Assembly: GCA_963733095.1 (NCBI GenBank)
Contig: CAVTBV010000009.1
Coordinates: 192,001 to 256,000 of the forward strand
DNA length: 64,000 bases
Reading direction: 5' to 3'
Source of the DNA: Candidatus Bathyarchaeota archaeon
Lineage (GTDB): Archaea; Thermoproteota; Bathyarchaeia; Bathyarchaeales; Bathycorpusculaceae
Part shown: positions 31,481 through 45,537 of the stretch, piece by piece
Position numbering within the stretch: position 1 is the first letter of the stretch
Layout: each line of letters starts with the position of its first letter
Program-made: the position numbers and the translations under genes
Notes under the pieces: generated by a model
The model's database searches: none
What the model saw: only the letters and a program-made list of their open reading frames with translations
What the model was told of the DNA's origin: nothing

Positions 31481-31611
31481 AAGGCCTGCAGCAAACCAGG
31501 GGGCATAAGGTAAGTGCATTCTATTTTTCTTTATTTTTTTTAATGTTCTGATGATTAGCTGTTTTGCCCCAAACCTCTCTTCTACTATACCCCCAGAAAA
31601 TTGCAGGCCTT
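31481..31611 (-). repeat. ~132-bp MITE-like element, copy 3 (inverted)
   Basis: AAGGCCTGCA...TGCAGGCCTT termini; reverse complement has TATAGTAGAAGAGAGG and CTAATCATCAGAACATTAAAAAAA. Confidence 0.78.
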
Positions 31612-32036
31612 GTGAGTATCCCGCTACCGCACGATAGAAGAAATGCGCTTGCTGGAAAATGCCGAATTAATTGCACCAGAATTTGCACGAACGGTTGCTC
31701 CGATTTTCATAGGAAATAACCGAACTCGACCGATTCCGATGCCGCAGTTACGCCGTTCCTACGGGCTTTCGTTTTGATCGCCCGTATCTGAAATAGTAAC
31801 CAATGAGCATGAGGCCAATTGTAACAGCGATTACTATAATTGCCGTATCAGTAGTCGTGTTGTTTCCCCTCTATCCATGCGTTGTTTAACATCTAATAGC
31901 CCTACCTGCACGTTTAAAGTATGCAATGTCACGCTTATATGGCACGCTGTTCTTAGAGCGCAACAAATTGAAGGCCTTTAGCTATCGCAAGAAAACCTGT
32001 AGAGGCGATTAAATATCGCTCAAGGAAAATTTTTTT

Positions 32037-32318
32037 ATGCTCAGCAAAACGGAACAGGAATTTCTTCGGGACCCATCAAGTTTTAACTCGAATTATCAGC
32101 GTTCATTGCGTTGCCGCCTTAAAGTCAAAGCCGAAAAAATGCGCGGGGAACTTTCTTTGCTTAACGCTACGGAAAACTGTAGCGGCGTTGCTGAATTCTG
32201 CAGCGAAAATAAACGTCTAAATCAAGACCATTCAATGAATCAGGGGCAGAAATGGAGCCTTCGGCGGGATTTGGACCCGCGACCATTACCTTACCAAGGT
32301 AACGCCCCACCGGGCTAG
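32037..32318 (+). pseudogene. probable integrase N-terminal fragment int(N) running into the tRNA-Thr att site
   Basis: ORF enters the att as WSLRR and continues antisense through the tRNA, as expected for partitioned archaeal integrases. Confidence 0.6.
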
Positions 32319-32328
32319 GCTACGAAGG
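32253..32328 (-). tRNA. tRNA-Thr(GGT), CCA encoded
   Basis: GCCTTCG/CGAAGGC acceptor stem, TTACC-TTGGTAA-GGTAA anticodon arm, GCGGG-TCCAAAT-CCCGC T arm. Confidence 0.95.
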
Positions 32329-32496
32329 CAAATTTGTGTTCTTCTCTCAAACAACATGCAGTTCTAAATAAAGAGCTTACGGTTACCCAGCCCAATCCAA
32401 CGATGGAAACCAGCAAAATAACGCTGAAACACCAGACTTTAGGGGGCAAATAAATATTAAAGGAGGCTAAACGTATTGTCACACAGTTCAACGTGT

Positions 32497-32584
32497 GCAG
32501 GGGTCTCCAAGCCAGGTCAACGGAGTAGGGCTTAGGACCCTATCGCGTAGGCGTTCGTGGGTTCGAATCCCACCCCCTGCACCA
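32497..32584 (+). tRNA. tRNA-Leu(TAG), CCA encoded
   Basis: GCAGGGG/CCCCTGC acceptor, TAGGG-CTTAGGA-CCCTA anticodon arm, long variable arm, GTGGG-TTCGAAT-CCCAC T arm. Confidence 0.96.
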
Positions 32585-32651
32585 TATATAAATAAACTGC
32601 AGTGGATTTATCCTGGCGATGTATACCTGTTTTTTCTTGGTTTTTCATATT

Positions 32652-32717
32652 TTAAATATTCCTTTTTCTAAAGAACTTGAGCCCTTCAAAGTCGGTGATG
32701 TACTCAAAGCCTTCTTC
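32652..32717 (-). pseudogene. tyrosine-integrase C-terminal tail remnant
   Basis: EEGFEYITDFEGLKFFRKRNI*, resembling the GFEYV...K.FRKRK tail recalled for Bathyarchaeia integrases. Confidence 0.55.
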
Positions 32718-32921
32718 TTTCCAACAAGCGTAGGACTGTCACTTAACTAAAAGAAGACGACAACATTCCTGTACACAGCGCTGTCTTCTGTCGACTTAAA
32801 GCTGATTCCCAACGCAAGCCATCAGTTACCGGGTAGAAGAAGCGTCCGTGCAGCAATCTTCTTCTTCTCTTAAAGTAGACTACCGACGAACAAATAACCT
32901 TGTGCAGGACCTTAACTGGAC

Positions 32922-33611
32922 TTAATAATATTTCTTCAACGGGTTTTGCGGGTCCGTCGCTAACTTCACAGACGACGGAATTATGACGTTGCGCCAATCC
33001 GGTTCGAATGTTCTTGCTTCAATACCAGAAACATTAACTCGGTGGATGTGGAGAGCATATTCCATCGCTTGGTCCTGAGGGTTCTCAAGCTCAAGCATCT
33101 GCTTTAGGCTTAAGTGTTCAAAGACTCTTCTAATCGGGCGCATCGAGTTGCCATGGCACGAGATAGCCACATTACAAGGATTCTGTCGAAGCCAACTTTC
33201 AAGTTGCACAATAAAGGGCAAGGTGCGGCTTTCAACCATTTTGAGGCTTTCGCCGTCTGGAGGCGCAAAATCGTAGCCTCGATGAACTTTGGCAAACCAC
33301 TCAGGTTTTTCGGCTGCTACCTCAACCTTGCTTTTGCCCTGCAACGTACCATAACAACGTTCTATCAGGCGGTCGTCTACGAAAACAGGAACGTTGAGGT
33401 GCGGTTTGAGGACAATCTCAAGGGTTCTTTTGGCTCTCAACAGATGTGATGTAAATGCATAGTCAATTTTTTCTTGTTCCAACTGTTGAGCAATTTCTTG
33501 TGCCTGTAAAAGTCCTTTTGCAGTTAAGTCTGGGTCACGCCAGCCCGAGAATATTCGGTTGCTATTATCAGTGGTCTCAGCGTGTCTAAAAACGAACAGA
33601 TTACAAATCAT
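32922..33611 (-). CDS. histidine phosphatase family, cofactor-dependent phosphoglycerate mutase-like
   Basis: RHAE, FSGW.D, ERCYG.LQG, PPDGES and HGNS.R motifs. Confidence 0.88.
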   Translation of the reverse strand: MICNLFVFRHAETTDNSNRIFSGWRDPDLTAKGLLQAQEIAQQLEQEKIDYAFTSHLLRAKRTLEIVLKPHLNVPVFVDDRLIERCYGTLQGKSKVEVAAEKPEWFAKVHRGYDFAPPDGESLKMVESRTLPFIVQLESWLRQNPCNVAISCHGNSMRPIRRVFEHLSLKQMLELENPQDQAMEYALHIHRVNVSGIEARTFEPDWRNVIIPSSVKLATDPQNPLKKYY

Positions 33612-33934
33612 AAATTAGCTTCACCAAATGTCGAGTAAACTGGGGCTATCGCAAATTGTCTTAACTCTTTTATTTACATATCTCAATTGAGTTACTGGCA
33701 TGTTCCAAAGCGGTTCTCACATCCTCGGTGAACAGAACATTTCTTCATCTTAACCGTACGCATTTCATAAAGTCTGTTTGCAACTGTTAATAATCTGTCT
33801 TTTTCTTCACGGTAGTTTATCACCAAAACCGTGTTGCTTACAGAAACATAAACAACATTTTGAATCTCAATTTCTTCTGAATTAGACCCTCCTTTCTCTT
33901 TTTATTTTTCTTTATTTAATTTGCAAAAAAGGCA

Positions 33935-34450
33935 CTATAATTGTTCAATTTCAATTGCAACCTCGTTTCTGCGCAAAAATCCCGGAATAAATGGCGGATT
34001 GTAAAGCATTGTGAACACTTCACCTTTTGTTTTGATTTTCGCCGCTGTTAATTCGTGCAATAGTTCTTGCGTCTCTTTTTCAAAATGAGCTTCTGACCAC
34101 CCGCCTGAGAAACAAAGGGCAGCAACAGTTCTCTCAGGAATTTCAGATATTTTCACCTTATCATCCAAAGGTTCAGGAGTGGTCTCAAGCGTGTATTCTG
34201 CAGGCATCACAAAGGCCATAGCACCAGTCTCCGAGATAACGGGTGAAGTCATCGAGATTTTTTGAGAAACCACTGGCGCAGTCATTTTCACTTTTGATTG
34301 TTGCTTATTTTGGCCCGTTATGAACTTGTAAAGAAGACTAAACGCATCTACTGTTGGATCTTCGACCTTTGCAATAACGGTCTTTGGGTATCGACGAATC
34401 TCAACTTTTCCTATCTCTCGAATTACTTCATATTTTAATGTCTCAACCAT
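33935..34450 (-). CDS. SOUL heme-binding protein
   Basis: EIRRY, I.G.N, MTAPV and YNPP.....RRNE motifs; ATG at 34450. Confidence 0.88.
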   Translation of the reverse strand: MVETLKYEVIREIGKVEIRRYPKTVIAKVEDPTVDAFSLLYKFITGQNKQQSKVKMTAPVVSQKISMTSPVISETGAMAFVMPAEYTLETTPEPLDDKVKISEIPERTVAALCFSGGWSEAHFEKETQELLHELTAAKIKTKGEVFTMLYNPPFIPGFLRRNEVAIEIEQL

Positions 34451-34469
34451 TTTTTCCACTTCCAAGTTT

Positions 34470-35252
34470 TTAGGAGATTTTGCGTCTAAACAACAGAATA
34501 CTGGCACCCAAACTAAGAACGCCCACGATAAATATTGCAATCAATGCGTACCAAATATCTTGCCAGACGAAGCCCTTGATTATTAATGACTGAAAGGCGC
34601 CAGCAACATAGGTGAAGGGGTTGACCTTCGCGACTTGTTGAACCCAATCAGGTAACAGACCAAGCGGCATTACAGCAGCGGAGAGAAACAAAAGCGGAAA
34701 AGTAGTTAAAAGACCAATTGAAAGGGTAGTTTCAGCATTCTTGGTGTTTAAAGCCACAAACAAGGAAATTCCTGACCAAGCAATTCCGAAAAGGGCGGCT
34801 AACACGAAAATCAATAAAACTCCGAGAACACCCGAGGCTATGTTTACACCTAAAACTAAACCAATCGCAAGTATAATTGCAACCTGAATAACTGTAGTCA
34901 ATGCGCTACTGAAAAGTCTCCCAAAGAGAATTGATGATTTATTGATTGGAGCAACTCGCATTTTGTCCATAAAGCCGCTGTCAAAATCGTTCACTATTCC
35001 AATCCCTGTATTCAACGCTGAGGAGGCAATTGTTTGTATTACGACTGCGGCAGTGAAGAACGTAATGTAGCTGCTTGTTCCAGTGAGCAGTCGGAAGGTT
35101 GGTATGTTTCCAATTGCCGAGAAAGCTTGAGTGAAAAGCAAAAACCAAACTAGCGGTTGAATGAGATTGAAGAAAATTAAAATTGGCTGGCGCAACAGTT
35201 TTTTGTTCCAGCGCATAAAAATAGCTGCAACTTCCGAGAGCATTTCCATCAT
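34470..35252 (-). CDS. ABC-2 type exporter permease
   Basis: Six TM helices; LPDW...A.VNP.TY motif. Confidence 0.9.
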   Translation of the reverse strand: MMEMLSEVAAIFMRWNKKLLRQPILIFFNLIQPLVWFLLFTQAFSAIGNIPTFRLLTGTSSYITFFTAAVVIQTIASSALNTGIGIVNDFDSGFMDKMRVAPINKSSILFGRLFSSALTTVIQVAIILAIGLVLGVNIASGVLGVLLIFVLAALFGIAWSGISLFVALNTKNAETTLSIGLLTTFPLLFLSAAVMPLGLLPDWVQQVAKVNPFTYVAGAFQSLIIKGFVWQDIWYALIAIFIVGVLSLGASILLFRRKIS

Positions 35253-35254
35253 TT

Positions 35255-36271
35255 TTAACGTCTCCTTCTTTTTTGAGCACCAATTGCTTCTTTGCGTTCT
35301 ACAACGTTGAGGGTTTTTCCTGTTAGTTTAAGGAAGACTTCATCAAGAGTGGGCGCTGAAAGGTTAAGTTGTTCAATGTCAATACCAGCATTATCCAATT
35401 CTCGTACTATTTGCGTAATAACTGTTGGGCCATTTTTTGCTGTTATCGTCAAGCCGTTCTCGGAGATTAAGCCGTCGTTGCATTTGCCGACTTCTTGAAT
35501 CCCGGGCAACGTAGAGATTAATTCTTTAGCCTTATCACACGCTGAGGAATCGGCTATTTTGAATCGGAGTTTGATTTTGTCTGAGCCTATTTGCTCCTTT
35601 AGTTCATTTGGTGAGCCTTCCGCAACAATTTTACCTTGATCGATGATACATAATCTTCCGGCTAAAAGGTCAGCTTCTTCCATATACTGTGTGGTTAAGA
35701 AGATTGTCATTCCTTGACGGTTGAGCTTTGTTATGTAACTCCAAATATCTTGACGGCTCTGTGGGTCTAAACCTGTTGTTGGTTCATCTAAGAATAGAAT
35801 TTTAGGTTCAGAAACTAATGCTGACGCTAAGTCGAGCCTCTTTCTCATTCCACCTGAAAAAGTCTTTAATCTACGGTCAGCTGCCTCAGCAAGCCTGATT
35901 GTTTGTAGGAGTTCGTTAACTTTTGCTTTCGCTTTTTCTTTTGCAATATGATGAAAGCTGCATTGCAACATTAGGTTCTCACGTGCAGTGAGGTCATCAT
36001 CGACTCCGACTTCCTGTGACGAGTATCCTATTATGCGTCTTACCTTGGCTTGGTCAGCATCAACGTCTAATCCATCGATTGTGACTTCTCCAGAACTTTT
36101 TTCTAAAAGTGTTGTTAGGATTTTAATTGTTGTACTTTTTCCTGCTCCGTTCGGACCTAGAAAACCGAAAATTTCGCCTTTTTTCACAGTGAAAGATATG
36201 TCATTTACTGCAACAATGTTTTTGCCGTAAGTTTTGTTTAGATTTTTTACTTCTACAATATTTTCTGCCAT
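35255..36271 (-). CDS. ABC exporter ATP-binding subunit (DrrA-like)
   Basis: GPNGAGKST, FSGGM and LDEPTTGLD motifs. Confidence 0.93.
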   Translation of the reverse strand: MAENIVEVKNLNKTYGKNIVAVNDISFTVKKGEIFGFLGPNGAGKSTTIKILTTLLEKSSGEVTIDGLDVDADQAKVRRIIGYSSQEVGVDDDLTARENLMLQCSFHHIAKEKAKAKVNELLQTIRLAEAADRRLKTFSGGMRKRLDLASALVSEPKILFLDEPTTGLDPQSRQDIWSYITKLNRQGMTIFLTTQYMEEADLLAGRLCIIDQGKIVAEGSPNELKEQIGSDKIKLRFKIADSSACDKAKELISTLPGIQEVGKCNDGLISENGLTITAKNGPTVITQIVRELDNAGIDIEQLNLSAPTLDEVFLKLTGKTLNVVERKEAIGAQKRRRR

Positions 36272-36658
36272 CTTTTTCTCACTGCAGTTAAAAACTAGGG
36301 GTAATTCCTACACTTAACCTATTTCTAAGGGTGTAATAACCTTATCGTTGAGTTCTTTAACAACTTGTTTCTCAGGATTATTATTTATAATTAAAATCTT
36401 GTTTTTCTTCTCTAAAATACAAAGAAAAAGGGGAAAGTAACTGCACAGAAGCAAATCAAACGATAGATGCATCCCCACAAGTACCCTCGGCCCAATTACC
36501 TCTTGGCCATTAAGGGTTCGAGGCAACGGCTGCTCAAACTACCAGGGGATTAAAACACAACCTACTGCAGGCGAATTCTTTCGATACCACAAATCGTACT
36601 TCAACTCAAAAGCCCATCCCCAGCACTATGGTTAAGATTCAGTATATAGAAAGAATTT

Positions 36659-36700
36659 TTGGGCAAAGAGTACTTTCATTGGGCAAAGAGGACTTTCAAT
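36659..36700. repeat. tandem 20-bp duplication
   Basis: TTGGGCAAAGAGTACTTTCA followed by TTGGGCAAAGAGGACTTTCA. Confidence 0.7.
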
Positions 36701-36762
36701 GAACTATAACAAAGCAAATTTAGCTGTAACTACATAAATGAACTTTAAGATGAGGGTTTGAA

Positions 36763-37380
36763 GTGCAAATTTGGTTCCTGCTTTCCTTATTAGGCTTCAT
36801 CGCAGTAATACCAATTTATTTCTTATCAATTGAGCACTCAAAACTCAAACAAAAATATGGTGAACAAAAAGGAAAAAGGATCGGAGAAATATTAGGTATA
36901 GTTTCTGGTTGGGGATTTTTTCTTTTTTGGTTCGGAATCTGGTTTTCTCCGCAAGACAGATTTGCTACTCCATTTCTTGAGGATTTGTCAATTCAAATTC
37001 CATACATCAACTTCACACTCAATGTCGCCAATCTAATTGTTTTTCTGCCGTTTTTCATAGCTGGTGCATGGTTTGGAGTCAAAGGCGTTCTAGAAACATC
37101 TCTTAAGGTTGCAGAAACTCACAGAGCAGAAAAAATCACCTCCACAGGCGTTTACTCAATTATGCGTCACCCACAATATTTTGGCGGAATACTAGCACAC
37201 ATCGGTTTTTCCATTCTACTATCAGCAACTTTTTCTCTTCTCGTTACTCCTTTGGTAGTGGCTGAAATCTACTTGATTTCACTAAAGGAAGAAAGCGAAC
37301 TATCCAAAGAATTTGAAAAAGAATATGAAGACTACAAAACGAAAGTTCCGATGTTGTTTCCCAGGAAATTGAGAAGGTAG
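36763..37380 (+). CDS. isoprenylcysteine carboxyl methyltransferase / PEMT family membrane protein
   Basis: GVYSIMRHPQY, EE..L..EF..EY..Y..KVP motifs. Confidence 0.88.
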   Translation: MQIWFLLSLLGFIAVIPIYFLSIEHSKLKQKYGEQKGKRIGEILGIVSGWGFFLFWFGIWFSPQDRFATPFLEDLSIQIPYINFTLNVANLIVFLPFFIAGAWFGVKGVLETSLKVAETHRAEKITSTGVYSIMRHPQYFGGILAHIGFSILLSATFSLLVTPLVVAEIYLISLKEESELSKEFEKEYEDYKTKVPMLFPRKLRR

Positions 37381-37537
37381 AAAATGCATGTTTTTCAAAC
37401 CTTGGTTCTTTGTTGCAGGTGCTATGTTGGCGAACACGATTTTGTACTTGTCGTCCCAGCGTGATAGATGAGTTGAGGTCAACCCTATCCTGAAAGCCTA
37501 ATAGGGCAGATGAGAAATTCCTTTTGGGGTGTAGTAA

Positions 37538-37774
37538 GTGAAGAATGGCGAATGCACGATTTACATTATGAAAGGTGAGAAATGTATCAATAAGTTTAGG
37601 AGAGCAAAGGATGGTTGGAGTTTAACCATTGCGAGCGGTCGTGTGTTTTCTTGTACCTGTGAACAGATGGTTTCTCATTTACTACCCGCTTTAGCATTTG
37701 GGAGCAAGAAGGGCATAGCGGTTAAGGTCATCCCCGACAAAGAATTGTTGACAAAATCGCCAACTAATAGCTGA
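37538..37774 (+). CDS. hypothetical protein
   Basis: 78-aa ORF ending just before a mini-tRNA repeat. Confidence 0.5.
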   Translation: MKNGECTIYIMKGEKCINKFRRAKDGWSLTIASGRVFSCTCEQMVSHLLPALAFGSKKGIAVKVIPDKELLTKSPTNS

Positions 37775-37803
37775 ACAAACCCCTCTTAAGATAAAAGAGG
37801 GAT

Positions 37804-37851
37804 GTGCGGGTGACATCTCCACGGGTAGAGGGTTCAAATCCCACCTGCACA
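37804..37851 (+). repeat. mini-tRNA-like/att repeat (tRNA-Leu 3' derived)
   Basis: GTGCGGG-TGACAT-CTCCACGGGTAGAG-GGTTCAAATCC-CACCTGCAC. Confidence 0.75.
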
Positions 37852-38392
37852 ACAATCGGACCACATCGCAACGCCATTGCTCCGATAAACGGCTTTTTGA
37901 GCTGCTAAAGAACTTCTGTTGCCTAGAGCGCTCAAAGAAGAAAAAGATGGTGCAGCAATCAAACTACTCAATAACCCATAAGGAAAACAAAACAGACAAC
38001 TAAGATGCCCACCCCTCTTAGGATTCTCCCGATTAAGCGCTTGTTGCTTTAAACCTGCAGCGGAGTGCAAAGGCATTGGGTTTGCCTAAATGCTTGTACA
38101 CTCACGTCCACACTGCTCTGCATGGGTTCTATGTTGAGCTGTGTGGGCAAACGCTCTTCCCACACTAAAACCGCATAAGGCAAAAAGCCTAAACCAAGAA
38201 AGCAGACGTTTGCAAAGCCCACAGTGTAGTGTTGAATCTTTAGAGCCCCACACTCACACAAAGAAAAAAGAAATGAACCTCTTTCATGGCTAAAGCGATT
38301 AGGGTCTGAGCGTTAAATTTAGACGTGGTTTAAATCTAACCCCTGCGCCAGTTTAAGCAAAACGTATGAGGGTACGTTCGGGTATAATTCCG

Positions 38393-38500
38393 CTAAAGTT
38401 TACATTCTCTAAAGATTCTGGCGCCACCAAATTCTGTGACCTACTCAAAGCCTGATTCTACAAAGCTACAGATTTCTTTTTCCGTTTTAGCAACTTTTGA
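38393..38500 (-). pseudogene. tyrosine-integrase C-terminal tail remnant with internal stop
   Basis: SKVAKTEKEICSFVESGFE*VTEFGGARIFRECKL*; similar to 32652-32717. Confidence 0.6.
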
Positions 38501-38568
38501 GTTGTAGCTTGTTTTGCCTTGGAATAATGCTTCTTCAAGCTGGACGCAAAAAGGAAAGTTTTGGACTT

Positions 38569-39036
38569 CTATGCGAAGCTAACAAATTTTTTCGGTTCAT
38601 TACTCGTTGCAAAAGTCCAGAAGTGAGCTGTGCATTTAATGATTCTAAAGAGAATCAGCCCTGGATTTTCCGGTGTTAATCCTGCCTTCTTTAGGAAGGG
38701 CCTGGCGTCAAGAAGCTTCTTTTTCATTTCTATATCATCAATGAATTCAACCGTGCCGGCTACCCTCATTTGCTGCATGTCTTTGCTTTTACTGTTAAAG
38801 AAGCACACTTCAACCTTAGGTGTAGCTTTCAACTGCTTATAGACATCTTTTCCAGCGGCAGAGCTGTAATATAGACCTGACTTGTCAGCGTACCAAAGTT
38901 GAAATCCTCTGACCCGCGGTTGTCCACTATCTACGGTTGCTAAGAAGCCTATTGGATTTTCATTTACAAACTTGATATACTCTTCTAATGTAGATGGTTG
39001 ACTCATGTTGTTTTTCACTGAAAGATACTTTGGCAA
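38569..39036 (-). CDS. pyridoxamine 5'-phosphate oxidase-like FMN-binding protein
   Basis: FLATVD.GQPRVR and K.VY.QL..P.VE.CF motifs. Confidence 0.85.
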   Translation of the reverse strand: MPKYLSVKNNMSQPSTLEEYIKFVNENPIGFLATVDSGQPRVRGFQLWYADKSGLYYSSAAGKDVYKQLKATPKVEVCFFNSKSKDMQQMRVAGTVEFIDDIEMKKKLLDARPFLKKAGLTPENPGLILFRIIKCTAHFWTFATSNEPKKFVSFA

Positions 39037-39106
39037 CAGTATATTTATTGTTATTAAATTATGAAAGTTAATCTCTCAAAAAAGATTATTCTTTCAAAAT
39101 AGGGAA

Positions 39107-39157
39107 GTGCGGGAACATCTCCACCGGCTTGAGGGTTTGAATCCCATCCCTGCACCA
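39107..39157 (+). repeat. mini-tRNA-like/att repeat (tRNA-Leu 3' derived)
   Basis: GTGCGGG-AACAT-CTCCACCGGCTTGAG-GGTTTGAATCCC-ATCCCTGCACCA. Confidence 0.78.
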
Positions 39158-39436
39158 TTTTCGAACACTATCACATGACTTAGAAACCAAGCAGTCAATA
39201 ATGACTGCCAGAACCCTGACGAACCCATTCAAAGGCTGGGTTCTTCCAAACGCCTAAATGCTGGATAGGGCTTAACCATCTATTCCAGAGATTTGGTGTA
39301 CCCAACTCTATTTATTTCGTCAAGAGTCAGCTAACGTTGTACAAATCGATAAAGCAACAATCAAAACGGTAAACTTCAATGGACAATTAGTCCATACAAA
39401 CTAAATTGCAACCCAAATTTTCTTCTTTATTCATTA

Positions 39437-41155
39437 TCAAATAAGATTCGTTTGGTCTTGACACCCTCTATGTGTAAGTTTCCCGTTTACTACGTTTGAG
39501 GCGTCAATATCGTTGTTCGTTGCGTTTTGAAGAATTAAGTTGTAGATGTTCCCTCCGATTTGGTTAGTTCTAAACGTGTTCCCTGTGGAGTCCTGGAGGA
39601 AAACTCCAACATAGTTGCCGGTAATACTGTTGCCGATTACTGTGCAGTTATGGGCGTTTTCAAGCAATAGTCCAGTGCCCAAACTATCTGAGGGGTAACC
39701 GCTGTTTGTTATGGTAAATCCACTTACTGTAATGTTGTCAGTAACTATTGTTAATGCAGTGCCATTATCTACGCCTGAAATCACGGTTGTTTCGTTGTTA
39801 CCACTGAACAATTCCACAGACTTATTTAAAATAATATTTTCTTGATAGGTACCTGGATTAACCTGAATGATGTCTCCTTTGTAGGTTGCAAAGGAGTAGA
39901 TTGCCTCTTGAATAGCGTTGTATCCTAAGCCATTATTTACGTCAGTAACTGAGTAGTTAACTCCTGATTCAAAATCCTGCGGCCAAACAAGAATTCTGCC
40001 GTATAGACTCTGAGTCTGATTGTCGAATTGTGGATCATTGTAAACGATGTCAAAACTTGAGTTATACTGATTAAGCAGTTCTGCTATGTCGCTGTAGAGT
40101 TTTTTGGTCCAACTCGATGCTGTATGGTATTGCCAAACTGAATCATCAGGACTCCTGAACCCAAATCCGTAATCATCTGGAAGCACGACAGCCGTGTTTG
40201 CTTTGAGGTAACCCTGTTTGTAAGGATTATTTTTTACGTAGCTCCAGAAGTCTTTGAGTGCATCAAAATGACTTTGGTTTAGGGTAGTGCTTGTGTAGTT
40301 TTGGCTTGAATCATAAACTGCTATGTATGTTGCGCCTGAATTGTAAGCTAAAACCATGTCACTGTACATTTGGGGACCGGATTCAAGGTAGGGCGCTTGA
40401 TTGTATGTCCAAGTTATGATAGCACCCCAGGTTTTATCTTGCACTTGCGCAGAGCCCCTCAGCTGGCTGATTTGCAATTGCCTACTATTGTTCCAGCCAA
40501 ATTGAGCTAAAATCGTATCGTATCCCAGTTCATAATCAAACCAGTAGAGCGCATAATCTGAAGTGAATAGTAAAGAATCTAGGCTGTGGGTAAAGTTGGC
40601 GGCTACTGGTACACCTTGACCCTGAGTCCATATGTGGAAGTACCAATTAGCGTAGTCCAGATAACTAGTAGGTTGGCTTGTCACGTTGTAAATGCTGTTA
40701 GACGTTAAGTTGACAGTTTCATCCAGCTGAATACCTCCAGGTTCATCGTAAAAATAGATTCCGAGCAACCGATTACCAAACTGTTCTTTTGCCGAGACAA
40801 ACCAAGCTTCTGGAGTGTAACCGATGTATCCAGGGCTATTTAGGTCTTGGTAGTAGGCGGGCATAAAATACATACCTGCGTTGTAAGCGTAGTCACAAGT
40901 TTGGTTGAGCAATGTCTCGTTGCTTAAAATGTAGGGTGAAGCAATAATGAATAGGTTAGTGTAGTCTTTGACTTTGTCGATTAGGGCTTTACAGTCTGCA
41001 ACTGTACTGTTCCACCCCGTCTCAATTCCCACATAGAAAGTCTTAGATTCACCCGGGGTTTGTCTTGATGGGGTACGCAGAGTGTATGCTAAAATAAAAG
41101 ACAAAAGCACTAACGCAACCAGCAGTGCTGCAGTAACAGTTCTTTTATGTTTCAA
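39437..41155 (-). CDS. secreted protein with glycoside-hydrolase-like domain and C-terminal NosD/CASH beta-helix
   Basis: N-terminal TM, YFYDEPGG motif, then V.PGTY.EN and Asn-rich beta-helix repeats. Confidence 0.7.
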   Translation of the reverse strand: MKHKRTVTAALLVALVLLSFILAYTLRTPSRQTPGESKTFYVGIETGWNSTVADCKALIDKVKDYTNLFIIASPYILSNETLLNQTCDYAYNAGMYFMPAYYQDLNSPGYIGYTPEAWFVSAKEQFGNRLLGIYFYDEPGGIQLDETVNLTSNSIYNVTSQPTSYLDYANWYFHIWTQGQGVPVAANFTHSLDSLLFTSDYALYWFDYELGYDTILAQFGWNNSRQLQISQLRGSAQVQDKTWGAIITWTYNQAPYLESGPQMYSDMVLAYNSGATYIAVYDSSQNYTSTTLNQSHFDALKDFWSYVKNNPYKQGYLKANTAVVLPDDYGFGFRSPDDSVWQYHTASSWTKKLYSDIAELLNQYNSSFDIVYNDPQFDNQTQSLYGRILVWPQDFESGVNYSVTDVNNGLGYNAIQEAIYSFATYKGDIIQVNPGTYQENIILNKSVELFSGNNETTVISGVDNGTALTIVTDNITVSGFTITNSGYPSDSLGTGLLLENAHNCTVIGNSITGNYVGVFLQDSTGNTFRTNQIGGNIYNLILQNATNNDIDASNVVNGKLTHRGCQDQTNLI

Positions 41156-41354
41156 GATAACCTTTGATTAATTATTAAGCCATCTTTTAAGTTAGTGTTA
41201 AAAAATAATTAATTAGAGCTTGATTAAACGTTCAAGTTAAGTACAACTTCAGAGATGCCGCTTGCATACTCTTCTGTCCGCCTAGAACTTCCAGTAATCA
41301 ATACCATTGTATGTTATCCACCTTTAGACATATGCGCAAAGAAAAGAGGGAGTT

Positions 41355-41405
41355 TGGCGAGTGATACCTCGGCGCCTTGAGGGATTCGAATCCCGCTATC
41401 CACTA
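41355..41405 (+). repeat. degenerate mini-tRNA-like/att repeat
   Basis: AAAAGAGGGA leader as at 37793; TACCTCGGCGCCTTGAGGGATTCGAATCCC. Confidence 0.6.
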
Positions 41406-41608
41406 TCGAGGAACCTTAGCTGTCGACACTTTTCACTTCTTGCTCTGAAGACCAAAAACGTTCAATGGATAATTCACGCTTAAAAGATGCAGCTAAAACA
41501 TTTTTATTCAATAGTTTTTTAAGGCGACACAACAATAACTTCTCATTCACTACGGGTACTGCCTACGGTCGGAAGTTAACAACTTGCCCTATATAGGATG
41601 AGAAAACC

Positions 41609-42730
41609 ATGAAAAAACAATTGCTTTCAGCTATTCTTATCGCATTTTTCTTTGTTTCAGTTGCAGCCATTTCCCAAATATCCCCCTGCCAAACAGTGGC
41701 GCCGGGAACAACAGCAACTCCAACGCCAACAGAAGCACCAGCACAAGGAAGTGCCCCTGACTTTTTACTCATAGTTGGAACCATAACTGTTGTGGTAGTA
41801 GCTATCGGAGGCACGTCTGCATTTTTGGTTGTTAAGAGGAGGCGGGTGAATGAAAAAAGCTTGAGGCGATTTTCATCCAGTGACTTCCAAGAATGGGTTA
41901 TCAAAAAATTCAATGGTAAACCAAGTGATTCCTCTTCGGGCGTAAATGGTTTTACCCAGGGAGGTCAACCACTTTTGGTTAAACAATCTGACCATGTCAG
42001 CTTGGCTGAGGTTGAAGACTTTGTCAAAACACTAGTGAAGGGAAAGGCGCAAAAGGGCACAATTGTAGCTTTCAACTTTGACAACGATACCATTGAAGGA
42101 AAAGTAACGGCTATGGATAACGGAATTGAGCTTCAAATGTTGCGCATAACTGAACTAGTGAATAAACGCTTCTCTCGCAGAATTGAAAGCCTTGCTCGTT
42201 CGCAGGTCACCTTCGATGCCCCAGCCACATACATACCAGCGGAAGCCCGTGGGGGGGAAACACAAAAACAAACTTTTGAGAAAATACCAACAATGCTCCC
42301 TAAGGATGGTGTGGGCAAACCTAAGGTATTCGTATCTAATAGTAACACGAAGGTAGCTGACCAAGTAAAGAAAATGCTGGATTTTCTTCATTATGACTAT
42401 GTCATAGGTGACAAAGAAGAAACGTCTGTCCCAATTCCTGAGAGCAAATTTGGTCTTATGCAAAGCTGTGATTGCGCAATAATTAACATCGCTGCTGCTG
42501 AACAAGAGAGAAGGTACAGCGGACTTTACGTCCTTAATTCTAATATTATCTCAGAAATCAATGCAGCCTATCTGAAATATAATACGCAAGTTATCTTGTT
42601 GTTGGAGAGAAAGATAGACCTCCCTACAAATCTTAAAGGGCTAAAAAGAATTGAATACGACAGCGATGATCTGTCTTTCAATGCAGCAATGGATCTGGAG
42701 AAAGCTTTGGCAGATTTCAAAGAAATATAA
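41609..42730 (+). CDS. membrane-anchored protein with Mrr-like domain and C-terminal TIR-like (Cap12/Pycsar-type) domain
   Basis: Signal peptide plus TM; 'SSSDFQEWV..KF.G...KQS' Mrr-like region; 'KVFVS...CDCAII...N.NIISE...LLE...LP.NL.G...IEY' TIR-like region. Confidence 0.7.
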   Translation: MKKQLLSAILIAFFFVSVAAISQISPCQTVAPGTTATPTPTEAPAQGSAPDFLLIVGTITVVVVAIGGTSAFLVVKRRRVNEKSLRRFSSSDFQEWVIKKFNGKPSDSSSGVNGFTQGGQPLLVKQSDHVSLAEVEDFVKTLVKGKAQKGTIVAFNFDNDTIEGKVTAMDNGIELQMLRITELVNKRFSRRIESLARSQVTFDAPATYIPAEARGGETQKQTFEKIPTMLPKDGVGKPKVFVSNSNTKVADQVKKMLDFLHYDYVIGDKEETSVPIPESKFGLMQSCDCAIINIAAAEQERRYSGLYVLNSNIISEINAAYLKYNTQVILLLERKIDLPTNLKGLKRIEYDSDDLSFNAAMDLEKALADFKEI

Positions 42731-42766
42731 TATTTTGAATTCCTGTCTCTAGCAAAACCTTCTTTA

Positions 42767-42819
42767 GCTGGGGTTCGGGAAAGAAAATCTGAGTGCGGTT
42801 CGAATCCGACTCCTGGACA
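42767..42819 (+). repeat. tRNA-like fragment of a different type
   Basis: GCTGGGG...TGCGGTTCGAATCCGACTCCTGG with a canonical T-loop. Confidence 0.45.
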
Positions 42820-42978
42820 ACCAAATTAATACATGCAAAATATATCTTTGCGATGTCCCGTTTGTTTTAATCAAAAGTTGATTTAAGGGTTTTTTTGTTG
42901 TAGTCAACGACATAGCCCTTTGTCGTAACCGGGCATATACTAGCATTTTAATATCATAAATCCATGCCCTATGGATAA

Positions 42979-43296
42979 GTGAAAAATTCGATGTTAGTAA
43001 AAGTTGAAATGAAAGATTTGATCGGTGAGACCGAGAGCCTTGTCAACTTTTTAACCAAGCACTACAAATTACATCCATCTTTAAACCGTAACGGTTTGGA
43101 GTTAACTGAGGAGGTTGTTTCAACTTTTGGGGTTGTGCGGATGGTAAACAAGTTTCTTGGTAGCAAGAAACTAAACAGTACTTACTGGGCTAGTGTGCAA
43201 GGTAACGCAGTTTTGATCAACAGGTTTAACCGGAAAAAGAACGAAAAGAAAAACAAGCATCCGACTGCTCCACACATGATTAGTCATGGTTGGTAG
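42979..43296 (+). CDS. hypothetical protein, possibly eL22-like
   Basis: L..FL....S...V...VNKFL....L...Y......V.I.RF pattern with a basic tail. Confidence 0.5.
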   Translation: MKNSMLVKVEMKDLIGETESLVNFLTKHYKLHPSLNRNGLELTEEVVSTFGVVRMVNKFLGSKKLNSTYWASVQGNAVLINRFNRKKNEKKNKHPTAPHMISHGW

Positions 43297-43399
43297 CATA
43301 AGCTTCTATATCTAAGGAAAGTCTAAATTCCAATTTAGGACTATTTGCAGGGTCCAAAATTTGGAAAATAATTTGTAGATAGAAAAGACCTAATTGTTT

Positions 43400-43436
43400 G
43401 TGCCGTTATAAGGGTTTGAATCTCCCTTCTGCACCA
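43400..43436 (+). repeat. distal tRNA-Leu 3' copy (outermost att)
   Basis: GTGCCG...AGGGTTTGAATCTCCCTTCTGCACCA. Confidence 0.65.
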
Positions 43437-43556
43437 TTGTTATCAAAACGTTAAAGTGTTCCAAATGCCGTTTATTTTGGTAGAAAAACTTATCTTTAAC
43501 ATAGAATACAAAGCAGTCAAAAAAAAGATAGGTCTTGCTTGAGTAGGATGTAAACA

Positions 43557-44345
43557 ATGTCTGAACATAAACCTGTATGGCCTGAATCGGGTGACCTCGT
43601 GATCGCTACGATAGAAAGCGTTATGGATTACGGAGCATATGCTAACCTAGATGAGTACAGCCGAAGAGGTTTCCTTCACATCTCCGAGATCTCCAGCGCC
43701 CGTATAAGAAACGTCCGAGACTTTGTTCGTGAAAACCAAAAAATGGTCCTCAAAGTCCTTCGCGTAGATATCGAAAAAGGTCACATCGACCTATCACTAC
43801 GAAGAGTAACTAAACGTGAAAGAATCGAAAAAATCAAATCTTGGAAAAAAGACCGCAAAGGCGACGCCCTCCTGCATGCAGTAGCAGAAAAAACTGGGTT
43901 ACCCATACATGAGGTCTACCAGAAAGCCGGTGTACTTCTTGAAGAAAAATACGGCTTATATGACGGCTTCGAAAAAGTCGTGAAAGAAGGCACAGATGTC
44001 TTAACTAAACTCAACATTCCTGAAGACCTTGCCAAAGTTATCGCTCAAGTTGCTGAAGAACGAATAAAAATCAAAACCGTGAAAGTGCGAGGCGTTATCG
44101 AGGTTCGTTGCATGAAGCCCAACGGTGTTCGATGTATCCAAGAAGCATTTGGCAAAGCTAAGAAAACACAAGAAGTAAAAGATGCCCAAATAGAATTTGC
44201 AGTAATCGCAGCCCCAAAATACAGCGTAGAAGTCTCCGCTGATAATTGGAAACGCGCCGAAGAAGTGCTAGATAAAGTAAGCGAAAGCGTAGTTGCCAAC
44301 ATAACTAACGCAGGCGGACACGGCTCTTTTAAGAGAGAAAAATAG
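43557..44345 (+). CDS. eif2a: translation initiation factor aIF2 alpha subunit
   Basis: WPE.G.LV, S1 domain with LHISEIS and KGHIDLSLRRV, AP.Y motif. Confidence 0.95.
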   Translation: MSEHKPVWPESGDLVIATIESVMDYGAYANLDEYSRRGFLHISEISSARIRNVRDFVRENQKMVLKVLRVDIEKGHIDLSLRRVTKRERIEKIKSWKKDRKGDALLHAVAEKTGLPIHEVYQKAGVLLEEKYGLYDGFEKVVKEGTDVLTKLNIPEDLAKVIAQVAEERIKIKTVKVRGVIEVRCMKPNGVRCIQEAFGKAKKTQEVKDAQIEFAVIAAPKYSVEVSADNWKRAEEVLDKVSESVVANITNAGGHGSFKREK

Positions 44346-44354
44346 GGTGAGAAA

Positions 44355-44729
44355 TTGAGAGAACCCTCAGTCAAAATAGAATGGGGTCAAGTGGAGAAGA
44401 TAGGAAAGGGAACCAAGGCAAACTATGATTCAAAGAAGCTGGCGCTGACTTTCTGCTTTAAGCGGGGACCTGATATGTCGAGCGAGCTTCTGAGGGCATC
44501 TCGGGAACTTTTGATGAAAGAACTCAAAGAGCTAGGTTATACGAGTCGCATGAAGTACAATGGAGAAGTTGTTGTTGATAATGTCCAGGAGAGCAATGTA
44601 GTTTTGGTCAAGAAAAACCATAAACTTGTGATTCGCTTGAACAAGAAGCAAACTGAAGAAGAACTCAATTTGTCTTCAGAGACGCTCGATTCTAAGAGTG
44701 ATAGCCAGAGTAACATAAAGTTCTCTTAA
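44355..44729 (+). CDS. hypothetical protein
   Basis: 124-aa ORF directly after aIF2-alpha, preceded by GGTGA. Confidence 0.6.
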   Translation: MREPSVKIEWGQVEKIGKGTKANYDSKKLALTFCFKRGPDMSSELLRASRELLMKELKELGYTSRMKYNGEVVVDNVQESNVVLVKKNHKLVIRLNKKQTEEELNLSSETLDSKSDSQSNIKFS

Positions 44730-44847
44730 AATCAATCCCCACTTAGTTTTTCTCGGGGTAGGCTATTTTAGCTCTGAATTTTAGGATCGATTTTAATTGG
44801 GTTTTTGGGAAAACAACTAAATACTTGATTTAGGAAATGTTAGAGCT

Positions 44848-45537
44848 ATGGCTATTCCAAGAAAACGCTCCAAAAAGAACCTGTACATTGCCTTGCTTCT
44901 TATTGTTATTCTGAGTGTTTCCGTTGCGGCAGCAGCATATGCGTTTTGGCCCCGCGCTGTGGTGGGAAAGGCGGGTGTCCATGTTGGTGATAGCTTTACC
45001 TACAGCATTACTGGATCAGTGTCTTTACAAAGTCCAGACGCAACGGTAGCTCCCGGATTCGAGCAATATAACCAAACAGACTATTACAAGGTTTCAGTGA
45101 CAGATGTAAACGGTCCCATGGTCTCTCTTGATACTCTATGGGCCTTCAAAAACGGAACACAAGTAACTGGGCAACAAACGATTAATTTGACCGATGGAAG
45201 TCAAAGTGTCGATAACGGGTTCTGGGCTATTTACTCAGCTAACCTAAATGTAGGTGACCGACTTCGTCCAACTGACAATAGGTACATCGTTAATGCTACT
45301 GACACTCAACCCTATGCTGATAGCACCAGACAAAGAAACTTTTGGTTTATAGAAAACGAGTTCTATGATGTTAACGACCCAACACAAAGCACACTACGCG
45401 ATGTCTACAACGGTATCTACTTCGACAAACAAACAGGGATGCTCCTAACATTGAACAGCATATCCTACTACAACAATCCATTAAGGACAGAAGTCATCAC
45501 TTGGCAACTGGTCAACTGCACAGTTTGGGCTGTCTGA
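44848..45537 (+). CDS. membrane-anchored secreted protein
   Basis: N-terminal TM; GV.VGD.F.Y and FDK.TG.L motifs shared with 62752-63426. Confidence 0.75.
   Translation: MAIPRKRSKKNLYIALLLIVILSVSVAAAAYAFWPRAVVGKAGVHVGDSFTYSITGSVSLQSPDATVAPGFEQYNQTDYYKVSVTDVNGPMVSLDTLWAFKNGTQVTGQQTINLTDGSQSVDNGFWAIYSANLNVGDRLRPTDNRYIVNATDTQPYADSTRQRNFWFIENEFYDVNDPTQSTLRDVYNGIYFDKQTGMLLTLNSISYYNNPLRTEVITWQLVNCTVWAV

Follow-up and report, generated by a model that had tools for sequence, protein, structure and literature searches.

Three described systems are close to the locus analyzed here. In genomic islands of the Islander type, an integrase lies next to an intact tRNA gene and a displaced 3' fragment of that tRNA forms a direct repeat at the distal end (PMC4383910, in the portion available). 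The portion available on tycheposons describes how elements integrate one after another at a single tRNA, and how pieces of integrases and of tRNAs lie throughout the islands (10.1101/2020.12.28.424599). Archaeal elements are also described as integrating in tandem at a single tRNA locus and losing their integrases afterwards (PMC8371274, likewise in part). The mechanism of integration is already well known, and what is new here is a family of sites. The window, by which we mean the whole stretch of 64,000 nucleotides from a Candidatus Bathyarchaeota archaeon that was analyzed, contains an 11-kb island behind tRNA-Leu(tag). We propose, with a probability of roughly 0.85, that tyrosine-integrase elements entered the 3' end of this tRNA gene again and again by site-specific integration, thereby building the island, and that the repeats which punctuate it are the att scars. 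The target locus and its flank are as follows.

32253-32329, minus strand: tRNA-Thr(ggt) (ARAGORN; Rfam tRNA, 62 bits; synteny)
32497-32584, plus strand: tRNA-Leu(tag), the proposed integration target (ARAGORN, Rfam)
43557-44345, plus strand: eIF2-alpha, the conserved chromosomal right flank of the island (Pfam)

The tRNA-Thr gene diverges from the neighboring tRNA-Leu and the pair is retained in relatives, as judged by synteny, while the eIF2-alpha flank is present in 58 of 61 genomes of the genus. The boundaries of the insertion can be read directly: tRNA-Leu is intact at the left edge, a direct repeat of its 3' part lies at 43400-43436 (copy 4, below), and the site is empty in a relative (G056), where tRNA-Leu ends at position 16252 and is joined straight to the homologue of window position 43437 onward. 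Window positions 43412-43560 match this empty site, comprising the tRNA-Leu 3' end and flank, at 86% over 150 nt. The region 32585-43436 is thus an insertion, which we read as a genomic island with the 3' end of tRNA-Leu(tag) as its putative attL core and left edge. The preliminary description of this DNA had suggested comparing cassette order at tRNA-Leu in related genomes, and beyond the empty site in G056 the gene sets do differ: in 10 of the 12 relatives compared, tRNA-Thr/tRNA-Leu and eIF2-alpha enclose about 0-13 kb of differing gene content, with occupied sites of 1.6-13 kb in which the leader copies described below are internal or at the distal edge, and in the other two (G012 and G057) no tRNA was found inside the 17 kb examined. 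Relatives of this genome carry the name Ca. Bathycorpusculum, and a transaldolase-transketolase-epimerase cluster is located at tRNA-Leu in relatives. In the window, the island carries the following genes.

32922-36271, minus strand: histidine phosphatase, SOUL haem-binding protein, ABC-2 permease and ABC ATPase (Pfam)
36763-37774, plus strand: PEMT/ICMT-family methyltransferase and a 78-aa ORF (Pfam; ORF list)
38569-39036, minus strand: PNPOx-like flavoprotein (Pfam)
39437-41155, minus strand: 572-aa NosD-like beta-helix protein (Pfam)
41609-42730, plus strand: 373-aa protein with a weak C-terminal TIR domain (Pfam score slightly below the cut-off)
42979-43296, plus strand: 105-aa ORF without family assignment (ORF list, Pfam)

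Most of the cargo labels proposed earlier were recovered by Pfam (His_Phos_1, SOUL, ABC-2, ABC_tran, PEMT/ICMT, PNPOx and NosD-like), but 'Mrr', 'GH' and 'eL22-like' were not. Between and beside these genes lie the repeats, which were scored in the window with an nhmmer profile built from genome-wide copies.

36420-36548, plus strand: degenerate att-like site of the 'module B' type (nhmmer family comparison)
37784-37857, plus strand: leader copy 1, with leader, T-arm and tRNA-Leu-like tail (nhmmer E 2.4e-16)
38322-38350, plus strand: leaderless tRNA-Leu 3' fragment, a core (blastn similarity to the tRNA-Leu 3' end and flank of relative G055)
39095-39160, plus strand: leader copy 2, with tRNA-Leu-like tail (nhmmer E 9.2e-10)
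41337-41406, plus strand: leader copy 3, with a tail resembling a tRNA-Ala(cgc)-type 3' end (nhmmer E 3.9e-10; tail comparison)
42770-42825, plus strand: degenerate leader copy with GGTTCGAATCC T-loop and non-Leu tail (sequence, junction alignment)
43400-43436, plus strand: copy 4, a displaced tRNA-Leu 3' fragment at the distal edge (sequence; G056 alignment)

The repeats first noticed in the sequence are therefore real, and three of them score strongly in the genome-wide profile, although the sites at 38322-38350 and 42770-42825 had been overlooked. A tRNA-Leu-like 3' end, earlier ascribed to all of them, holds for copies 1, 2, and 4 but not for copy 3, whose tail, CCCGCTATCCAC, is closer to the tRNA-Ala(cgc)-type fragment than to tRNA-Leu. 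The weak copy reported at 36497-36521 is indeed part of an att-like site, but of a different variant, in which an A-rich/GGGG start is followed by the T-loop half GGGTTCGA and then by a separate conserved module; a tRNA-Cys-like tail follows this site at about 36613-36626. Copy 4 has lost most of its leader, and it is visibly degenerate, as are the sites at 38322 and 42770. Copy 1 would be the attR of the element on its left and copy 4 the oldest attR of the island.

The repeated element is about 70 nt long and consists of an A-rich tract, GCGGGTGAYATCTCC (which holds an imperfect palindrome), a short spacer, a tRNA T-arm, and a tRNA 3' tail. The leader of about 45 nt is sharply conserved and is common to elements that target different tRNAs across Bathyarchaeia. 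This genome has 39 copies by nhmmer, all of them intergenic and co-oriented within each array, and a strict pattern search gave 8 matches versus 0 for a reversed control pattern. The tails match different real tRNAs of the genome, namely Ala(tgc), Arg(cct), Val(gac), and Leu. The family model matches all 101 sampled genomes of the genus (E ≤ 1e-3), some of the weak matches possibly being tRNAs because the model includes the T-arm, and 46 of 141 genomes of the class (E ≤ 1e-6), one example of leader conservation being a match in another family of the class at E 2e-19. In the 141-genome class sample the leader and a Group A-like integrase occur together in 29 genomes, the leader only in 17, the integrase only in 24, and neither in 71, as raw genome counts that ignore kinship. 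Conservation of the leader across the class far exceeds what a decaying scar would be expected to show, which counts against reading the copies as scars alone; the leader is therefore under constraint, presumably for a function.

The preliminary description had offered a second reading of the repeats, in which they are transcribed as mini-tRNAs that lack the anticodon arm and act as processing signals or decoys. Copy 1 can take the required shape, an acceptor stem, one hairpin and a T arm, with a minimum free energy of -19.2 kcal/mol (z -2.3 versus shuffles), and it has a weak likeness to the mascRNA model (RF01684; E 6.8, with 19.7 bits where the gathering score is 42.5). However, copies 2 and 3 fold like shuffles (z -0.01 and +0.10), so that only one of three full copies folds better than they do. 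The pairing of GTGCGGG with CCTGCAC can be drawn in copies 1 and 2, as claimed, but only copy 1 is predicted to fold that way, and the CTC/GAG hairpin, put forward as a shared feature, is absent from many copies of the family. Moreover, in a comparison of 47 copies, exchanging tails between copies does not weaken their pairing with the leader (-9.43 kcal/mol for the leader's own tail versus -9.86 for others), and 95% of permutations score at least equally well; the tails vary while the leader, including the supposed 5' acceptor strand, stays constant. Compensatory changes in the acceptor-like stem had been suggested as a check, and among 18 copies there is no RNA-type covariation, the value for the proposed structure being 0.124 versus 0.124 in shuffles and the pairing cells 65.3% versus 65.5%. 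No copy matches the Rfam tRNA model (RF00005) at E ≤ 10, and the adjoining genes lie on either strand. The RNA reading is largely refuted by these observations, and we regard it as very unlikely.

What does accompany the repeats is the remains of integrases. Two Group A tyrosine integrase stubs were found in the island by tblastn, each 45-70 nt behind a tRNA-Leu core.

32655-32774, minus strand: Group A tyrosine integrase C-terminal stub (tblastn)
38396-38566, minus strand: Group A integrase C-terminal stub, 57 aa (tblastn)

The first is convergent with tRNA-Leu, about 70 nt from its end, and its best match is to residues 354-374 of the 375-residue intact integrase on contig C14 of the same genome (57% identity, a weak E of 1e-3), with four other Group A integrases also matching. 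The second, convergent with the core at 38322, corresponds to residues 318-374 of 375 (47% identity, E 2e-11). The island has no intact integrase, only these two short stubs, and Pfam shows no integrase ORF adjoining tRNA-Leu; no stub was detected by tblastn behind copies 2 and 3. The same layout recurs at other sites of this genome and in relatives, 57 nt behind tRNA-Leu in G067 and 55 nt behind a leader copy in G035. Complete elements are found as well. In G048, tRNA-Pro(ggg) is followed by a Group A integrase convergent with it, by cargo, and by a leader copy (E 1.3e-12) at the distal side; the tail of this copy agrees with the tRNA-Pro 3' end plus about 20 nt of flank, and the element measures about 6.2 kb. 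In G163, from another family of the class, tRNA-Leu(taa) is followed by a convergent integrase and three downstream copies, the distal one with the same tail. Contig C14 carries an element of 17.5 kb whose integrase is intact and whose attR has a variant leader. The leader could in principle be the start of an integrase gene that is split by integration, as in SSV-type elements with attP inside the ORF, and many copies do have a TTG, GTG, or ATG codon behind a GAGG-like motif at the leader start. This start-like codon is, however, absent in several copies, and no reading frame is kept through leader and core because leader and T-arm are separated by a spacer whose length differs by 1-2 nt among copies, one frame having a conserved TGA. 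In addition, the integrases and stubs lie on the opposite strand, directly behind the core, with complete C-termini. The frame analysis and the intact, unsplit integrases adjoining tRNAs rule out a split integrase, to which we give practically no credence.

Taken together, the empty site, the variable islands, the stubs, and the complete elements lead us to read the repeats as attR or hybrid att junctions, and the earlier suggestion that they are scars of tandem integration that left mostly cargo is supported. Specifically, we propose that each integration would restore tRNA-Leu as attL and move the earlier tRNA 3' fragment downstream, where fusion with the right arm of the newly arriving element would give attR. 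The mini-tRNA-like repeats would then be attR or hybrid attR/attL junctions of decayed, serially integrated elements, in which the T-arm and tail represent the recombination core copied from the tRNA and the shared leader (the A-rich tract plus GCGGGTGAYATCTCC) the element-borne arm of attP. The integrase gene would usually lie directly behind the tRNA and point to it; in this island it would have decayed to C-terminal stubs, with cargo genes remaining between the scars. The leader may bind the integrase or a partner protein, and in compact elements it probably overlaps the integrase promoter region. The absence of tRNA-Leu tails from copy 3 and the 42770 site is not predicted by simple serial integration into tRNA-Leu, and the non-Leu tails may have been carried over from other tRNA loci or have arrived with elements that integrated into att copies already present.

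An extension of serial integration, rather than an alternative opposed to it, is that the leader-core sites are still active and that integrases from other loci of the genome act on them in trans, cutting out, reordering, and reinserting cassettes that lack an integrase of their own, so that tRNA loci behave like integron arrays. The strong class-wide conservation of the leader fits such a platform, as do the numerous integrase-less units of 0.2-2 kb in the arrays, the mixing of tails of different tRNAs inside single arrays, and the 20 tyrosine-recombinase matches in this genome. The TIR cassette is also suggestive, since its homologue is first behind tRNA-Leu in G010 and it is fourth or fifth here, the homology in both genomes begins only a few nt from the core (junction alignment), and the cassette has diverged further (75.9% over 1235 nt by blastn) than the adjoining eIF2-alpha region (85.4%). 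Against this, no cassette-skipping joints indicative of excision or circular forms were found in four DNA metagenome contig sets, the stubs show that at least some units once owned an integrase, many sites are degenerate (copy 4, 38322, and 42770), and the NosD-like gene alone is 90% identical in G012 by blastn, the flanking copies not being common to both. Cargo genes in the arrays lie in both orientations, and the array head has no resident integrase. Still active shuffling of this kind is, in our estimate, improbable, and the term 'integron-like platform' used earlier exceeds the evidence, there being no resident platform integrase, no single gene orientation, and no conserved hairpin. The related and more general idea, that leader and T-arm form a live class-wide module, at once an attP arm and a control region for a divergent integrase, which lets integrases act in trans on integrase-less cassettes and makes tRNA loci integron-like platforms, we also hold to be rather unlikely. 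If it were true, accessory genes would be taken up, rearranged, and passed from species to species at such loci, and so would entire metabolic operons, for example the transaldolase-transketolase-epimerase cluster at tRNA-Leu in relatives.

With serial integration as the preferred reading, an 11-kb patch of unrelated accessory genes is accounted for by ordinary tRNA-targeted integration. With the leader plus T-arm model as a sequence signature, integration scars can be recognized throughout the class, which helps to locate the limits of islands, to identify spurious 'tRNA fragments', and to define the flexible genome of these uncultured archaea. The tight conservation of the leader also points to a specific candidate protein-binding or regulatory site.

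Among known systems, mascRNA resembles copy 1 in that an acceptor stem and a T arm, with no anticodon arm, can be drawn for the latter, but the score is far under the gathering threshold, the fold is not common to the other copies, and there is no covariation. Integrons share with the island an anchor site followed by units with cassette sites, the addition of new units at the anchor, and mixed cargo. They differ in that no IntI lies beside the anchor here, the cassette genes face both ways, the units keep their own integrase remnants, and the sites are tRNA-derived direct repeats with no pairing above shuffles and no compensatory changes. Like Prochlorococcus tycheposon islands, as far as these are described in the portion available, the island is tRNA-adjacent, with older elements pushed inward and metabolic or adaptive cargo; the host domain is another, and the comparison is by description only. 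In the part of the review on archaeal elements (PMC8371274) that was covered, no description of this conserved leader arm was found and 'Bathyarchae' occurs once, under topoisomerase IB; the tandem insertion at one tRNA and the loss of integrases that it describes both fit the island. The island is also like the tRNA-gene islands presented in the available portion of PMC4383910. Unlike those, the window has integrases reduced to stubs and a conserved arm of about 45 nt beside the core; in common with them, it has an intact tRNA at one end and a tRNA 3' repeat at the other, a putative integrase stub where the integrase would adjoin the tRNA, an empty site in relatives, and a tandem array probably formed through repeated integration.

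Each repeat between the cargo genes downstream of tRNA-Leu(tag) is an attR junction or a hybrid of attR and attL. In the mechanism that we propose, the T-arm and variable tRNA 3' tail of each copy would form the recombination core, and the leader that precedes them, an A-rich tract followed by a motif, would be the element's arm of attP. The four repeats named in the preliminary description (copies 1 to 4) and its weak one at 36497 were found where that description had placed them, and the four can be aligned to one another and to the 3' end of tRNA-Leu. Two further sites, at 38322 and 42770, had been overlooked. Tails that are not of the Leu type occur inside this tRNA-Leu array, in copy 3 and at 42770.

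Features of the island and its flanks in the window (tRNA genes by ARAGORN, integrase stubs by tblastn with Group A proteins)
32253-32329, minus strand, tRNA-Thr(ggt)
32497-32584, plus strand, tRNA-Leu(tag)
32655-32774, minus strand, integrase C-terminal stub, ~70 nt behind tRNA-Leu (E 1e-3)
36497-36521, weak copy
37784-37857, copy 1
38322-38350, leaderless tRNA-Leu fragment
38396-38566, minus strand, integrase C-terminal stub, 45 nt behind the 38322 core (aa 318-374 of 375, 47%, E 2e-11)
39095-39160, copy 2
41337-41406, copy 3
42770-42825, degenerate copy
43400-43436, copy 4
43557, start of the eIF2-alpha gene

Among the earlier cargo labels, Pfam recovered His_Phos_1, SOUL, ABC-2, ABC_tran, PEMT/ICMT and PNPOx, but not 'Mrr', 'GH' or 'eL22-like'. 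The NosD-like cargo protein has 572 aa, a 373-aa protein gives a TIR match slightly under the cut-off, and PADLOC returned no match for the TIR protein or for a 105-aa ORF.

Of 61 genomes of the genus, 58 have the gene for eIF2-alpha, and the region upstream of it, taken from 12 relatives, contains a tRNA-Thr/tRNA-Leu pair in 10 of them, ~0 to ~13 kb away, with no tRNA in the 17 kb upstream of eIF2-alpha in the other two (G012 and G057). In relative G056 the homologue of the window from 43437 onward directly abuts the tRNA-Leu 3' end, and window positions 43412-43560, copy 4 included, give an 86% alignment over this junction; the island is therefore bounded at 32585-43436. The comparison of cassettes at tRNA-Leu suggested in the preliminary description yielded an empty site in G056 and differing cargo elsewhere, including DUF1385, PEMT, histone-fold proteins, tail-tube-like genes, and a cluster of transaldolase, transketolase, ribulose-phosphate epimerase and PRPP synthetase. 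The last is island cargo in four relatives (locus L015 of G067, L008 of G035, L013 of G010 and L018 of G002). In the source genome, which is 95% complete, tblastn at 1e-10 gave no match to transaldolase, transketolase, the epimerase fusion or DUF1385, and PRPP synthetase was represented only by a remote homologue at 32% identity; DUF1385 and the pentose-phosphate cluster are accordingly accessory cargo. In G010 the counterpart of the window's TIR cassette immediately follows tRNA-Leu, and in both genomes the homology begins within a few nt of the core, with a further core after the gene. Also seen within relatives' tRNA-Leu islands were T4 gp19-like and contractile-injection-system tube genes (L010 of G072, 7137-8333) and small chromatin proteins, histone-fold or Alba (L009, 11535-11753; L010, 6664-6882; L012, 13784-14068). 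Metagenome contigs from four DNA runs cover 31500-45000 in fragments, with no cassette-crossing joints, and those from three runs that diverge from the window just after 32584/32585 may belong to other organisms and carry no evidential weight.

A search of the whole assembly (16 contigs, 2.84 Mb, the window being C9:192001-256000) for T-loop-like motifs outside tRNA genes showed that many copies have a common 5' part and unlike 3' tails. A profile built from 22 copies found 39 leader-containing copies in the genome, with E-values of 2.4e-16, 9.2e-10 and 3.9e-10 for copies 1, 2 and 3. The consensus of 47 copies runs from an A-rich tract through GGGG, a short variable stretch, TGCGGGTGAtaTCTCCAct, a variable spacer of 8-9 bases and GGGTTCaAATCCC to a variable C-rich tail, and the leader is well conserved. 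The tails match 3' ends of the genome's own tRNAs, namely Ala(tgc), Arg(cct), Val(gac) and Leu, the match extending ~10 nt past the tRNA in some copies. All copies are intergenic and grouped in arrays with one orientation per array, and the genes between them lie on both strands. Seven of 31 genomes, all from one genus and the source genome among them, contain a match to a strict pattern, and none of the 12 genomes from other families does; the reversed control pattern had no match in any of the 31. The covariance-model scan of Bathyarchaeia genomes bore out the presence of homologous repeats elsewhere: with a sequence-only model (R1), all 101 genomes sampled from the genus gave a match at E<=1e-3, where some weak matches may be tRNAs, the T-arm being in the model, and, across the class, 46 of 141 genomes in 28 of 76 genera did so at E<=1e-6, with matches spanning the leader. 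A pattern scan of IMG/VR picked out a single contig of 24 kb, which bears a terminal copy and gave no integrase match.

The preliminary description had offered a second reading, in which the repeats are tRNA-mimic RNAs with a mini-tRNA fold. That fold is predicted as drawn for copy 1 only (z -2.30, equalled by 5 of 200 shuffles), the values for copies 2 and 3 being -0.01 and +0.10. The Rfam tRNA model matched none of the copies, copy 1 scored below threshold against the mascRNA model (19.7 vs 42.5 bits), and true tRNAs were the only family that Rfam returned for the island and for four further arrays. Compensatory changes were not apparent in the proposed structure: among 18 copies, 65.3% of cells pair vs 65.5% in shuffles, and the covariation score of 0.124, against 0.124, was reached by 221 of 500 shuffles. 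Over 47 copies, the duplex energy of the 5' part of the leader averages -9.43 kcal/mol with its own tail and -9.86 with the tails of other copies, 95% of permutations being at least equal, and of ten Leu-type tails five pair strongly and five weakly. The pairing of GTGCGGG with CCTGCAC is accounted for by a G-rich leader, constant among copies, that faces the C-rich tail of tRNA-Leu. Two other roles were considered for the leader: a coding N-terminus of the SSV type was ruled out by frame, and for a promoter of a divergent neighbour the nearest leader-side gene was divergent in 13 cases and co-oriented in 10, so that a bias is not clear.

The source genome has 20 Phage_integrase matches, 17 exceeding the cut-off. 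The largest cluster, Group A (about 375-430 aa, with an N-terminal zinc ribbon), typically lies just 3' of a tRNA and is oriented toward it. Core-then-stub layouts occur in many genomes of the class, with numerous matches limited to aa ~260-373. Such C-terminal stubs of ~30-120 aa right behind att cores are very common class-wide and far commoner than other fragments, probably because the tRNA-proximal end is spared from deletion. In four clear cases and a weaker fifth, a copy has on its leader side, back to back with it, a zinc-ribbon N-terminal remnant, 30-75 nt away in the clear ones; in compact elements the leader is therefore flanked by the 5' end of the integrase on one side and by the core on the other.

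Integrase remnants beside repeats outside the island (C8, C9 and C14 are contigs of the source genome)
G067, core then stub, 57 nt behind tRNA-Leu, ahead of the pentose-phosphate cluster
G035, core then stub, 55 nt behind a leader copy
C14 23626-23805, 28116-28473 and 30561-30819, core then stub
C9 259942, core then stub
C9 109649, N-terminal remnant
C9 264548, N-terminal remnant
G053 (L009 11826), N-terminal remnant
G013 (L045 1372), N-terminal remnant
C8 23900, weaker N-terminal remnant, ~150 nt from a copy scoring only E 0.29

Two other tblastn candidates for integrase N-termini, a TFB-like protein (C5 41516) and a transposase-like protein (C9 15955), were zinc-ribbon false positives. The A-rich tract lies ~25-75 nt from the start codons of the remnant integrases, on the opposite strand, and may contribute to the integrase promoter. 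Of the class genomes sampled, 29 have both the leader and a Group A-like integrase, 17 the leader alone, 24 the integrase alone and 71 neither, counts uncorrected for relatedness. Two Group A integrases of the source genome (C13 457881-459166 and C6 121471-123012) precede a tRNA, Val(gac) or Arg(tcg), in the same orientation, the reverse of the usual convergence. Two Group B integrases, 80% identical and of 424 and 458 aa (C13 16340-17611 and C9 114719-116092), are inside arrays between leader copies, and one adjoins an AbiV-like HEPN gene.

Complete elements have the same plan. On contig C92 of G048, tRNA-Pro(ggg) is followed by a Group A integrase that converges on it and ends 39 nt away, by cargo, and at 6.2 kb by a leader copy that matches the tRNA-Pro gene in T-arm, tail and ~20 nt of flank. 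In G163, which belongs to a different family of the class, a convergent integrase accompanies tRNA-Leu(taa), and the distal one of three co-oriented copies bears the same tail; C14 of the source genome carries an element of 17.5 kb whose integrase is intact, with a variant leader ahead of its distal repeat. G003, G016 and G001 also have arrays behind tRNA-Ala(tgc). The corresponding array of the source genome is divided between two contig ends, one with tRNA-Ala(tgc) and a truncated integrase (C16 178287-178984) and one with a reversed array bearing tRNA-Ala-type tails (C9 256900-267371); these ends are probably adjacent, the assembly having broken at the array repeats.

A leader-related motif, GGCGATGT or GGGTGATG, is found on the other arm, 35-45 nt past the core, at 5 of 11 tRNA-Leu loci compared, with a near variant at one more and in the C14 element, a pattern suggestive of protein-binding sites on both arms. 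A second type of site ('module B') has the leader and first half of the T-loop (GGGTTCGA), then a separate conserved ~45-nt module containing a hairpin followed by a G-run plus GTAGC. In the window and on C7, a tRNA-Cys-like tail follows ~95 nt beyond, as though an insert had split the T-loop. About 40 nt before canonical copies there is a sequence that resembles the leader and lacks a T-arm (GCGGGAGACATC..CCACT.GGGTATGTTCC), perhaps a second binding module or a tandem arm.

Other site types (contigs are those of the source genome)
Window 36420-36626, module B
C13 28730-28780 and 19641-19691, module B
C9 265483-265534, module B
C7 85227-85277, module B
C3 3554-3608, module B
L022 (G016) 764-809 and 5777-5824, leader-like sequence without T-arm
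C16 58639-58685, leader-like sequence without T-arm

Taken together, the empty site, the stubs and the complete elements uphold att scars of tandem integration as the first of the two earlier readings, whereas the lack of a shared fold and of covariation speaks against tRNA-mimic RNAs. Our literature search returned no paper describing the leader or tRNA-linked arrays in Bathyarchaeia, and a Bathyarchaeia virus paper, in the portion available, mentions integrases and not att sites (PMC10848311). Islander rests on tandem tRNA-gene islands with displaced tRNA fragments (PMC4383910); for tycheposons, integrations one after another are described, along with broken-up integrases and partial tRNAs inside the islands (10.1101/2020.12.28.424599); and a review of archaeal tyrosine recombinases covers tandem integration and integrase loss (PMC8371274). 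The island represents the same phenomenon as these Islander, tycheposon and archaeal tandem elements, and the repeats are a new family within the already known tRNA-gene integration islands.
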